Made by a program: the position numbers and the translations under genes. From Promethearchaeia archaeon (GTDB lineage Archaea > Asgardarchaeota > Lokiarchaeia > Sigyniarchaeales > SOKP01), in assembly GCA_046497275.1 (NCBI GenBank), contig JAWOFX010000010.1:1-6816 (forward strand): a stretch of DNA of 6,816 nucleotides. Reading direction: 5' to 3'. Shown here in pieces: positions 1,747 through 6,816 of the stretch. Every line of letters starts with the position of its first letter. The stretch's first letter is position 1. The notes under the pieces were generated by a model. It searched no databases, had not been told where the DNA came from, and worked only from the letters and a program-made list of their open reading frames with translations.

Positions 1747-3708
1747 ATGAGAGATGAAGGAAGAGAAGGATTGGATGAAATCGATGATAAGTTTGAGAAG
1801 AAATTAGGTCTTTTTCCGCTTATAGTTCTAGGCCTTTCATCCTTAACGGGGGCAGGAATTTATTCGTTATTAGGACCCTCGGCTGAGATCGCAGGACAAT
1901 CGATGATAATGTCTTTTTTCATCGGTGTAGTACTCGCTTTTTTTCTTGCAGGATTGTATTCTGAATTAGTTGCGATCAATCCAGAAAGTGGAGGAGCTTT
2001 TGTATTTGTTGAAAAAGCTTTTGGAAGAAAAGCTCTGTATCTTGGTTGGACCACATGGCTGGCTAATATGTCCTATGGTGCACTAGTTGCCCATACAGCT
2101 GCCATATTTATTACAGGATTATTTAATATTCCTACTGGTTATAGTTTACTCATTGGAATAGGATTCATAATTATAATGAGCGGGGCTAATATACTTGGTT
2201 CAAATTTTTTATCAAAGGTTCAAATTCCATTAACATTCGCCCTTATATTTTCGCTTGTTATCGGTTCGATATATCTATTTTTAAATCCGGATCCTTCCTT
2301 TAATTGGAATATACGTTCCTTTATGCCTTATACTATCATTCCCACATTTATGGCTGCAGCATTAATGTTTAATATATTTATAGGCTTTGAGGATATTTGT
2401 GCTATTTCAGAAGAAACAAAAGAACCAGAGAAAAATATTCCAAGAGCATATTTAGTTATGCTTATTGTTGCATCTGGATTCTATTCAATGGTTATATTCT
2501 CATTACTTATTTCAACATCAATGGAAGCCATAATTGGTAGCGAAATCGCATTTCTGGAGGCTGTTGAAGAGAATCCAATTGTGTATTTTATAGTTTTTTT
2601 TGGGGCAATTTTTTCACTTATAGCAACATCAGGAGTAGCTTTAATGACTTCGTCTCGTAATGTTTTTGCGCTCTCTAGAAAAGATTTTATTAATAGAAGA
2701 TATAGTCAATTAGATCCGAAAACAGGTACTCCCGTAAAAGCAATTTTTTTATCAACTATGATAACTATTTTAATTTTAATCAGCGGGCAAATAGAGTTTT
2801 ACGCATCAATTTCATCAGTATCTTACATGCTTGCCAAAATAGCTATGGGGATGTCGGTCTTTAAATTTCGCAAAACATATGATTACCCAAAAAAAGCTTT
2901 TAAACTACCAGGGCACCCTATTAGTACACTTATTGCAATTGGAACTGCCTTTTTATTGATAATCTCTTTAGGTTTAGATAGCATTCTCGTTGCATTATTT
3001 TGGTTGTTAATTGGATTAATTCTTTATTTATTTTTCAGCAGTAAGAGAAGGGTTTATGGTACTGTCTTTTTAGTCTCAGCTTTCTTATTTACACTTTCTG
3101 ATATGATGATAGGGCTCATAATCCTTGGTGTAGGTTTTATTTATTATTTATTAACAATTACCGATCGCAATTCTTTAAAACTGATATTAGCTGGAATGAA
3201 ATTCTTTTTTATCATTTTCATCGGGATAATGATTTGGCTTATTAAGAATATTGGAATATTAGATGCGTTTAATCCGACATTTATTCCATTTTTTGATAAG
3301 GTTTTACTAAATATTTTAATATTCATTTGTATTTTTTCATTAGGGACCGTATTATTAGATATAATTCCTCTTAAAGAATGGGTATATTATTTCATTAGGA
3401 AAAAGGAACAAGAACAAGTTGCTATTATCGTCGGTTCCGGTCAAATAATTGAGTTAGAACCAAAAAAACGTAAAATAATTCATATTATAAATGACATTAT
3501 AGGAATCTTTCAAATTCTCTTTTTTGTATATATCATTATACTCGTAAGCTTAATTGGGTTAAATGTCATTTCCATTCAAATCTTCTTTTCAGAAATGGTT
3601 AGCGAATTCATTTTAATGGTTATCTTAACAATTTTTGGATCTATCCTCTTAAGCTCAGGGTCATTTTTAATTTATATTAATATAGAATCTAAAGGAATTG
3701 GAATCTAG
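1747..3708 (+). CDS. APC-superfamily amino acid/polyamine permease with an extra C-terminal membrane domain
   Basis: APC motifs are present: TM1 GLSSLTGAGIYSLLG, PESGGAFVFVEKAFG, TM6 FIGFEDICAISEETKEPEKNIPRA, and KLPGHP before the last core TMs. About 220 additional, mostly hydrophobic residues follow the core. Substrate cannot be determined from sequence. Confidence 0.9.
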   Translation: MRDEGREGLDEIDDKFEKKLGLFPLIVLGLSSLTGAGIYSLLGPSAEIAGQSMIMSFFIGVVLAFFLAGLYSELVAINPESGGAFVFVEKAFGRKALYLGWTTWLANMSYGALVAHTAAIFITGLFNIPTGYSLLIGIGFIIIMSGANILGSNFLSKVQIPLTFALIFSLVIGSIYLFLNPDPSFNWNIRSFMPYTIIPTFMAAALMFNIFIGFEDICAISEETKEPEKNIPRAYLVMLIVASGFYSMVIFSLLISTSMEAIIGSEIAFLEAVEENPIVYFIVFFGAIFSLIATSGVALMTSSRNVFALSRKDFINRRYSQLDPKTGTPVKAIFLSTMITILILISGQIEFYASISSVSYMLAKIAMGMSVFKFRKTYDYPKKAFKLPGHPISTLIAIGTAFLLIISLGLDSILVALFWLLIGLILYLFFSSKRRVYGTVFLVSAFLFTLSDMMIGLIILGVGFIYYLLTITDRNSLKLILAGMKFFFIIFIGIMIWLIKNIGILDAFNPTFIPFFDKVLLNILIFICIFSLGTVLLDIIPLKEWVYYFIRKKEQEQVAIIVGSGQIIELEPKKRKIIHIINDIIGIFQILFFVYIIILVSLIGLNVISIQIFFSEMVSEFILMVILTIFGSILLSSGSFLIYINIESKGIGI

Positions 3709-3727
3709 AATCTAAAGGAATTGGAAT
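3683..3727 (+). repeat. Tandem duplication (23-nt period) between the permease stop codon and the element right end
   Basis: TAGAATCTAAAGGAATTGGAAT occurs at 3683-3704 and 3706-3727 (22/22 identical). The second copy runs directly into the element terminus ATGCAT at 3726. Confidence 0.95.
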
Positions 3728-3900
3728 GCATTTTAAAGAGCGCACATCTCTGTGGACCGCAACACATACGTGAATTGGCATTATGTAGTACTACTACACA
3801 TAAACAGTTTGAGTCTTTGCCAAAAATTCTTTTAAACTCATTTGATACCTTTGTGGTTTGATGTTACTTATTCCCACTTTGTTGTTTAACTTTAATTCTT
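3706..3900 (-). ncRNA. Putative orphan omegaRNA/reRNA (scaffold plus guide TCCAATTCCTTTAGATTCTA). The 5' boundary is approximate.
   Basis: TnpB guide RNAs are known to derive from the element right end plus the adjacent flank. On the minus strand the conserved terminal structure includes stem CAC-[GTAT]-GTG and AGAG-atgtgcg-CTCT. Expression is not shown by the sequence. Confidence 0.5.
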
Positions 3901-4054
3901 TGGTGGGGCGTCCGTTTGAGGCGGAAAATTTTATGGGTGGGGTAGTGGTAAATTTAGGAACCCTTTTTTTTGCTTGTTTTGGGCTTATCCTTTCATATTT
4001 TTTCAGATTTTCTTGAGCTTTTTTAACTTCAGAGATGGAAAAATCTTTTGTAGT
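3726..4054 (-). mobile_element. Degenerate, tnpB-deleted copy (copy A) of an IS200/IS605- or IS607-type element: right end plus tnpB 3' tail. The left boundary is uncertain and may extend to ~4128.
   Basis: Colinear homology with 6273-6534. The terminal 27 nt are 25/27 identical, the GCAACAC and GTGAAT blocks are shared, and the tail-coding region aligns without gaps. Homology with copy B ends sharply at ATGCAT. Confidence 0.85.
3794..4054 (-). pseudogene. tnpB: 3' fragment of tnpB (C-terminal tail only, no RuvC motifs, no upstream start codon)
   Basis: The stop-to-stop open frame reads TTKDFSISEVKKAQENLKKYERISPKQAKKRVPKFTTTPPIKFSASNGRPTKELKLNNKVGISNIKPQRYQMSLKEFLAKTQTVYV*. Its last 60 aa are 31/60 identical to the copy B TnpB tail. 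It is absent from the supplied ORF track. Confidence 0.85.
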
Positions 4055-5137: not shown

Positions 5138-5344
5138 CTAAAAATGATTTAGCTTTTTTATTTCATCTTTTTGTAATATTATTTCAGAGGCTTTAGCATT
5201 TTCTTTTAAATGTGAGATATTTGCTCTTAATAGCTTTTTCCAGCGCTCATAAAACTTTTCTGATTCTCCTGGAAAAATTCCATATGTGCCCATTCCTAAA
5301 ATAGGAATTTCCTCTTGTGATTTGTTTAACTTAATGTATCCCAT
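5138..5344 (-). pseudogene. Aldo/keto reductase remnant with a large in-frame internal deletion
   Basis: An AKR-type N-terminus (YIKLNKSQEEIPILGMGTYGI...WKKLLR) is joined directly to an AKR-type C-terminus (NISHLKENAKASEIILQKDEIKKL). At 68 aa it is far shorter than the roughly 270-330 aa typical of the family, and the catalytic region is absent. Confidence 0.75.
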
Positions 5345-6252: not shown

Positions 6253-6450
6253 TCTATTTTAAAAAATGGACTATGCATTTTTAAGAGTGCACATCTCTGC
6301 AACCAGCAACACGTTTGTGAATGCGGTATTAGGTAAAACTACTAATAAACTTCACACATAGGCAACACGAGTCATCTTTAAAAACTCTCTTGGACTCATT
6401 TGATGCCTTTGCGGTCTAACTCTGCTTTCATTTAATCTGGCTTTCCTTTT
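6253..6450 (-). ncRNA. Putative cognate omegaRNA/reRNA of copy B (guide AGTCCATTTTTTAAAATAGA). The 5' boundary is approximate.
   Basis: Positioned at the tnpB 3' end and right end. Minus-strand stem ACC-GCA-tt-CAC-[AAAC]-GTG-t-TGC-t-GGT and AGAG-atgtgca-CTCT, with sequence blocks conserved with copy A. Confidence 0.55.
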
Positions 6451-6816
6451 TAATTCTTCTGAGGGAACTCCATTTGAAGGGCAAAATCTAATCGGCGGGG
6501 TGGTGATAAATTTAACAAACCTTTGTCTTGCTTGATTGGTTAAGGGTCGGCGAGGATCGGAAATTAAGCGTAAATTGTAGGCGATGGCTTTATGAGAAAG
6601 GAGCTCTGGATGTTGTTTTCTGCCGATATTAGCCGCACCGTTGATATCTCCGTGAATGATTTTTCCGTTCCTTGTTCGAAATAGCCCATTGTGTTTCACT
6701 TTATTTTGGGTAAATCTGCGTAATCCAGCATATTCATCATTTGGTTTTTTCCCTATCGCTTCATTGTCGATATATGAACATTTGCTAGTATACCATTCGG
6801 TTGTGTAATCCACCGT
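6273..6816 (-). mobile_element. Right part of a tnpB-encoding IS200/IS605- or IS607-type element (copy B), running off the window
   Basis: tnpB 3' region plus a 79-nt 3' non-coding end that is conserved with copy A up to ATGCAT (6273-6278). No tnpA is visible in the window, so the family cannot be fixed. Confidence 0.85.
6352..6816 (-). CDS. tnpB: RNA-guided endonuclease TnpB, C-terminal part (5' truncated by the window edge)
   Basis: EWYTSKCSYIDNE...Y.G.R......GLFRTRNGKIIHGDINGAANIGRK matches the zinc-finger-less TnpB C-terminal signature (E.YTSK.SF.D...GKR..RGL.....G..INADVNGA.NI.RK). The RuvC-III Asp is present at codon 6648-6646. The frame is open to 6816, so GTG 6813 is not the true start. 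Confidence 0.92.
   Translation of the reverse strand, partial: TVDYTTEWYTSKCSYIDNEAIGKKPNDEYAGLRRFTQNKVKHNGLFRTRNGKIIHGDINGAANIGRKQHPELLSHKAIAYNLRLISDPRRPLTNQARQRFVKFITTPPIRFCPSNGVPSEELKRKARLNESRVRPQRHQMSPREFLKMTRVAYV

Follow-up and report, generated by a model that had tools for sequence, protein, structure and literature searches.

The C-terminal domain of ISDra2 TnpB (residues 376-408) is disordered and dispensable (PMC10097598; PMC10951260; 10.1101/2025.02.11.637750). In the same element the codons for the TnpB C-terminus overlap the omega-RNA (PMC10097598), and it has been concluded that the tnpB gene and the omega-RNA do not overlap in their essential parts (PMC10097598). Members of the TnpB2 group have, by definition (Jiang et al. 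2023, PMC10530073), a Gly or Pro in the canonical place of RuvC-II, with an alternative Glu located about 45 residues further downstream, and RIIr branches such as RIIr-5 are treated by Altae-Tran et al. 2023 (PMC10691335). Here we analyze an Asgard archaeal TnpB family that, judged from its sequences, has a real, selected and lineage-specific C-terminal extension, part of which is probably dual-coded with a probable guide RNA.

The window analyzed (6,816 bp) is one entire contig (C115) of a 3.85-Mb assembly with a completeness of 98.9%, and the contig end truncates a tnpB gene of which only the 3' end, hereafter copy B, is present on the minus strand (Table 1). In protein searches, the closest relatives of the gene are Promethearchaeota (Lokiarchaeia) records. 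The 5' part of copy B lies on contig C133 and is joined to the window through the exact overlap of the two contigs; because a one-base deletion on C133 interrupts the frame, copy B itself is probably dead, provided that the C115/C133 join is correct. The same genome harbors eight other long copies and several remnants, amounting to about a dozen related tails, and full proteins of the family span approximately 740-880 aa (769 aa in P0007).

[quoted passage not shown] By this arrangement of active-site residues, the family is assigned to the TnpB2-type (rearranged RuvC-II) RNA-guided nucleases. Split-RuvC motifs were found in copy B and in the eight other long copies of the genome, the Pfam OrfB_IS605 match lies above cut-off and, in terms of the WED/REC/RuvC/TNB fold and its three acidic residues, the predicted structure resembles ISDra2, ISFba1, Cas12f and Fanzor2 (Z about 13-14). 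The NCBIfam guided_TnpB model scores 55-64 bits against a curated cut-off of 100, with its match split by a large insertion.

The family shares with TnpB2/RIIr proteins, including TvTnpB, the Gly at the canonical RuvC-II position and the displaced Glu, as well as intact RuvC-I and RuvC-III aspartates and a structured RNA candidate beside the right end. In contrast to them, it is enlarged (about 770 aa versus about 400), its tail has 87 residues versus a nearest-relative median of 27-29, its zinc finger is incomplete, it has no linked TnpA, and its full-length form is fused behind a retropepsin-like domain. A set of enlarged sisters with short tails (P0015, P0017, P0019, P0020 and P0021), for which the literature searched holds no description, has the helical insertion after RuvC-I in common with the family, as well as both 3' hairpins, the right-end motif and a polyprotein form with a retropepsin-like domain; these sisters, however, end directly after the terminal strand, and their coding region includes neither extension nor stem. 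Like the aCas1-associated Asgard TnpBs (Cas1H-Asgard-1 and -2; PMC10691335), the elements have an Asgard host and repeat-flanked loci, and 7 of the 9 bases of the conserved downstream motif of those TnpBs match the terminal hairpin arm of this family. Here, however, the 9-nt-like motif lies upstream of the variable region rather than downstream, and Cas1 is absent from the genome (no PF01867 match) and from the neighborhood of the copies examined (no such neighbor at the loci read).

To the sequence-only reading, the 87 residues that follow GAANIGRK, a count that is exact, were a single basic accessory domain. An AlphaFold2 model built on a 134-sequence alignment (mean pLDDT 83.9) suggests otherwise; a model from 8 sequences was discarded (pLDDT 39). 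Tail residues 1-37 fall in blocks with pLDDT values of 89-96 and the following block has 73, whereas the final 40 residues have about 40, a value that could stem from the shallow alignment rather than from disorder. The modeled order over residues 1-47 is helix, loop, helix and a last strand on the TTPPI motif, and a short terminal helix is predicted within the last 40 residues. Alignment with solved chains of TnpB, Cas12f and Fanzor2 extends to about tail residue 5, the point at which the ISDra2 C-terminal domain starts (ISDra2 377-378 aligns with tail residue 5-6).

At its beginning the tail fits the profile of short-tailed relatives, which finish in a Pro-containing strand motif that is more than 90% conserved. 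TTPPI is the probable counterpart of this final motif, as indicated by weak scores together with the model and the constraint: the pairing was the best window in 5 of 9 sequences, and MAFFT aligned an earlier Pro instead. The 21-aa insert between these two parts (dN/dS 0.68, CI 0.42-1.04) tolerates 8-codon deletions. In the model, tail residues 1-47 are thus the folded end of the nuclease, with a motif seen clade-wide, and not an accessory domain; the true extension comprises some 40 aa, about half the size claimed. Basic composition does not set the tail apart either, since K+R content is 21% in tail and core alike (one full-length copy). Like the ISDra2 C-terminal domain, the tail follows RuvC-III, its last codons probably overlap the omega-RNA and its distal part has no confident fold. 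Unlike that domain, it has about 83 residues instead of 33, its first half is predicted to be folded, and it is under purifying selection (dN/dS 0.23-0.31), whereas the ISDra2 domain is poorly conserved, mutation-neutral and dispensable.

Table 1. Features of the window that bear on the tnpB tail (positions in the 6,816-bp stretch).
Feature	Position	Strand	Evidence or remark
Copy B, 3' part of an enlarged (~770 aa) TnpB gene	6352..6816	-	191-nt exact overlap with contig C133
Alternative RuvC-II glutamate of the rearranged (TnpB2/RIIr) active site	6796..6798	-	column >90% conserved; PMC10530073
RuvC-III aspartate	6646..6648	-	sequence motif
Tail residues 1-14: end of last RuvC helix and short helix	6574..6615	-	start common to wider clade; dN/dS 0.21
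Tail residues 15-35: family-specific loop-helix insert	6511..6573	-	confident model, weak selection, no codon periodicity
Tail residues 36-47 (TTPPI motif): predicted terminal beta strand	6475..6510	-	dN/dS 0.14
Tail residues 48-87 and stop: true lineage-specific extension	6352..6474	-	dN/dS 0.23; pLDDT about 40
Predicted RNA stem in last 20 codons	6355..6413	-	arms 6393-6413 and 6355-6373; candidate 5' part of omega-RNA scaffold
Non-coding bulged hairpin (predicted)	6307..6325	-	loop mostly GNRA-type; sister-clade equivalent covaries
Terminal hairpin (predicted) and element right end	6273..6292	-	common to sister clade
Copy-specific right flank at guide position	6253..6272	-	6261-6274 (14 nt) recurs at left boundary of reconstructed element
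Copy A, non-autonomous mini-element, 289 bp	3726..4014	-	left-end motif (about 3976-4014), last ~58 codons (3794-3976) and right end

When the last 70 residues were used as query, 3 of the 161 genomes of the class matched, all from one genus and with 7-11 copies each; metagenome contigs contributed 18 more loci, some from the same population, and the viral contigs searched gave no match. A profile search of 1.8 billion representatives returned one full-length cluster, fragments and enlarged sisters matching only up to RuvC-III, while protein searches gave this family alone, at 61-78% identity. Searches with the tail alone recovered no family in Pfam or NCBIfam and none usable in the ESM Atlas, and literature searches found no description of this TnpB family or of its tail. 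Among 117 other TnpBs the median tail length is 29 residues, with at least 50 residues in 17 proteins and at least 85 in two.

A quick tree of the RuvC part places the family (support 100) inside a clade (98) with sisters bearing 24-28-residue tails; tree-based values are approximate, because the copies are mosaic in sequence. Since the family nests within a short-tailed clade, these comparisons show the long tail to be derived and, as had been proposed, lineage-specific. An origin by simple stop read-through gained no support, as no DNA homology of the extension to the sister non-coding region was found beyond the common terminal hairpins. By the same kind of comparison, a C-terminal extension of TnpB arose more than once, because an unrelated TnpB2 branch (P0039, P0043, P0047, P0056, P0060, P0067 and related proteins; L105) bears basic tails of 45-80 residues with a common Lys/Arg-rich terminal motif.

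Selection on the peptide had been argued from copies A and B, in which the last 60 codons (6355-6534 and 3797-3976) align without gaps or stops at 67% DNA identity. The counts of 31 identical residues, 10 of them encoded by different codons, proved exact, and the similarity is far above chance because the genome carries about a dozen related tails. Copy A, however, is internally deleted, with its left end fused straight onto the last ~58 codons, and is hence not a gene; the comparison therefore records selection on the ancestors of copy A.

We tested selection on 36 intact tails using a codon model and a counting method with bootstrap, leaving out copy A, three decayed copies (two of them with stops inside the tail), one copy with a terminal frameshift, two partial rows, one duplicate and three copies rearranged upstream. 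The codon model yields an omega of 0.31 for the tail, far from 1, with a log-likelihood 113 above that for omega=1. In 16 full-length copies, omega is 0.27 for the N-terminal lobe, 0.18, 0.12 and 0.18 for the RuvC parts, 0.39 for the helical insertion and 0.33 for the tail. Counting over the last 40 codons gives a dN/dS of 0.23 (CI 0.14-0.36); the codon-model value of 1.000 for the 9-codon TTPPI segment was taken as an optimizer failure, counting giving 0.10-0.14. When the last 40 codons are read in the four frames with a displaced third position, values rise to 0.87-1.39 and stops appear; the antisense mirror frame is the sole other frame with a low dN/dS, as expected. In neutral simulations run with the observed silent rate, 30-34 of 36 sequences acquire a stop, compared to none observed. 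Furthermore, the 36 copies present no internal frameshifts in the tail, even though the non-coding part directly downstream is rich in non-triplet indels; third positions of codons 727-748, which lie outside the predicted stem, vary 2-3 times more than first and second positions (p 0.0008), and conserved tail residues, including those in the RNA loop, show many silent changes with zero or single replacements. These sequence comparisons show that the extension (residues 48-87) is maintained by selection on amino acids, in agreement with the original claim.

The 3' end of the element also appears to carry an RNA layer. Consensus folding predicts three elements, namely a stem within the coding sequence (last 20 codons), a bulged hairpin past the stop and a terminal hairpin; the right end is sharply defined, and the flank beyond it is copy-specific. 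Across the family 95% of the stem cells pair, compared to 17-43% with slid partners, and pairing reaches 98.7% in the central 6-bp helix. The stem shows 13 one-sided variants that keep the pair and one two-sided change; significant two-sided covariation was not found in it, shuffles matching the observed score. The single-sequence fold of the region is no better than shuffles (z 0.1), Rfam has no match for it, and a raw all-pairs covariation scan was discarded because its 324 scattered hits were transition artefacts. Silent positions in the arms average 2.3 tree changes, versus 5.3 at unpaired positions (p 0.04) and 5.8 upstream (p 0.005), facing Ser and Thr codons show no silent changes at all, and the recurrent replacements of Tyr by His, Met by Lys and Gln by Arg preserve stem pairs. 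In the loop, Pro and Leu are retained despite 8-9 silent changes apiece, and peptide and RNA constraints therefore both appear to act there. Both 3' hairpins recur in the sister clade, where 4 of 10 hairpin pairs show two-sided changes and the right end lies 64-92 nt past the stop; no stem, and no extension either, was found at the coding end of these sisters. Four relatives have the middle hairpin lengthened through self-complementary insertions. In public RNA runs the locus appears as contigs, and the 3' end of another copy is included in one of them; host genes are represented as well, and carry-over of DNA is possible.

Taken together, these data suggest that the last 20 codons probably also belong to the omega-RNA, in which they would form the predicted stem. 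The earlier proposal that conservation is not due only to an overlapping RNA stands as far as the peptide is concerned; it probably does not extend in full to the motifs cited, since PQR.QMS and the terminal YV lie on the stem arms, where silent positions are less variable, and part of their conservation is probably due to RNA pairing.

Several other copies are internally deleted like copy A (L050, L059, L060, L085 and C185), and all of them retain the 3' end. In copy A, residues otherwise conserved have been lost through changes that preserve G-U pairing, and its sequence is compatible with a possible stand-alone omega-RNA locus. A 23-nt tandem duplication (3679-3724) abuts the right end of copy A, at the 3' end of a permease gene, and L050 and L066 have short tandem repeats of a similar kind beyond their right ends; such repeats are possibly repair scars at the guide target.

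Neither a Y1 or serine TnpA nor a resolvase was found in this assembly, in which repeats might be unassembled, and unlinked Y1 genes are present in two genomes of the genus. Those Y1 genes have no ends in common with the element. Two reverse transcriptases were considered as possible mobilizers and rejected, being of the eukaryote-type non-LTR ORF2 kind, located on small contigs and absent from both related genomes; the corresponding endonuclease and reverse transcriptase frames of about 1,025 aa (L098, C81:442-3519; L099, C10:1247-4336) are probably contaminating contigs. In 5 of 14 copies, 9-14 nt are common to the right flank and the left boundary; the boundary repeat averages 7.6 versus 4.9 for cross-pairs, with 0 of 2,000 permutations as high. 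Such repeats are unusual for IS200/IS605. They were seen at 6261-6274 and the reconstructed left end on C168, as well as on C71, C108, C25 and L012, and often begin at the AT that closes the right end; left ends differ between copies, and some have short extra junction sequence. No empty insertion site appeared in the contigs of public RNA runs.

Longer relatives of the family are polyproteins of more than 1,480 aa (1,806 aa in the sister clade) with a retropepsin-like domain (L044:2-4450, L048:2-4450, L045, L049, L043 and L052; P0019 at L092:3001-8421). Their order is about 900 residues without a family match (two stretches of which look PIN-like by eye), the retropepsin-like domain and TnpB. 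A 1,758-codon frame at L089:6753-12029 (C111:36752-42028, minus strand) has N-terminal ~1,030 residues and a protease motif as in the TnpB polyproteins, and carries HTH-like and HNH-like motifs (the latter by eye only) in place of TnpB at its C-terminus, an architecture that suggests the C-terminal nuclease of the polyprotein may be swappable. Between the left end and tnpB there is a conserved block of about 400 bp (L090:417-746, minus strand; equivalents on C71, C92, C116, C18 and C134), containing a short divergent frame that is frameshifted in several copies and has no family match.

We favor, with slightly more confidence than doubt, an account in which these observations form three layers. 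Residues 1-47 would complete the nuclease fold through a helix, an inserted loop-helix and a terminal strand. The last 20 codons would template an RNA stem that continues into the two non-coding hairpins and the right end, as expected for an omega-RNA scaffold, assuming that this RNA is produced and folded as predicted. About 120 extra bases beyond the terminal strand were acquired in this lineage, once to judge from the sister clade, which has the two hairpins without extension or stem; across their whole length they are kept by selection on the peptide and, in the distal half, probably also on the RNA. The extension, presumably flexible by itself, would fold on the enzyme's own omega-RNA and stabilize the complex, taking no part in catalysis. 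Were the last 40 residues instead a dispensable passenger, with the frame merely running through an omega-RNA gene conserved as RNA alone, they would resemble the ISDra2 precedent, in which mutation of residues 376-408 is neutral and the segment is both disordered and dispensable (PMC10097598; 10.1101/2025.02.11.637750), and both their low pLDDT and the coincidence of the most conserved motifs with the stem arms would fit. We nonetheless consider this very unlikely, and the RNA-only version strongly disfavored, given the codon periodicity outside the predicted stem, the restriction of low dN/dS to the coding frame and its antisense mirror, and the lack of stops or internal frameshifts next to a non-coding part with many non-triplet indels.

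Alternatively, the extension might bind DNA, in target search or in holding cut ends, and thereby aid a spread unlinked to a transposase that leaves short target duplications. About a dozen copies exist in a 98.9% complete assembly with no Y1, serine resolvase or Cas1, 5 of 14 copies (versus 0.5% of cross-pairs) have direct repeats of 9-14 nt connecting the two boundaries, and right ends are precise while left ends vary. Nothing connects the tail to such mobility, however: tail-less sister elements look mobile too, given their different flanks, two genomes of the genus have an unlinked Y1 gene and a transposase could be unassembled here, and with no empty site seen the duplications are unproven, which leads us to regard a DNA-binding role as unlikely. 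A protein-protein surface, serving self-association, a host partner or a latch on the ~1,800-aa protease-containing precursor, seems comparably improbable. The conserved Pro, Gly and hydrophobic residues, the short predicted terminal helix and the polyprotein nature of full-length relatives are consistent with it, yet the sister polyprotein of the same architecture has a 24-aa tail, most copies in the genome keep the tail with no polyprotein part, and no conserved partner gene adjoins except for the short divergent frame of doubtful coding status. Combining the preferred omega-RNA account with mobility, a single insertion could have provided both a new omega-RNA stem and a selected peptide recognizing it, with the element spreading in the absence of a linked transposase and duplicating 6-14 target bases; this composite scenario is, in our judgment, quite unlikely.

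With the omega-RNA account as the working explanation, the family looks like a counter-example to the rule proposed for ISDra2, as one stretch of 60 bases appears to be under constraint in both its peptide and its RNA form. Such dual constraint would illustrate TnpBs adding protein and RNA parts jointly towards larger, Cas12-sized effectors, and it cautions that tail truncation, standard for shrinking TnpB editors, may fail to transfer to this clade. The reach of these results is modest, concerning one genus, a probably auxiliary tail and an enzyme known here from sequence alone.

Elsewhere in the window, positions 205-1668 encode a 487-aa long coiled-coil protein with two C-terminal hydrophobic segments, for which Pfam coiled-coil hits are sub-threshold. 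A 68-aa minus-strand frame at 5138-5344, with no Pfam hit, resembles by eye the N-terminus of an aldo/keto reductase and is possibly a gene remnant.
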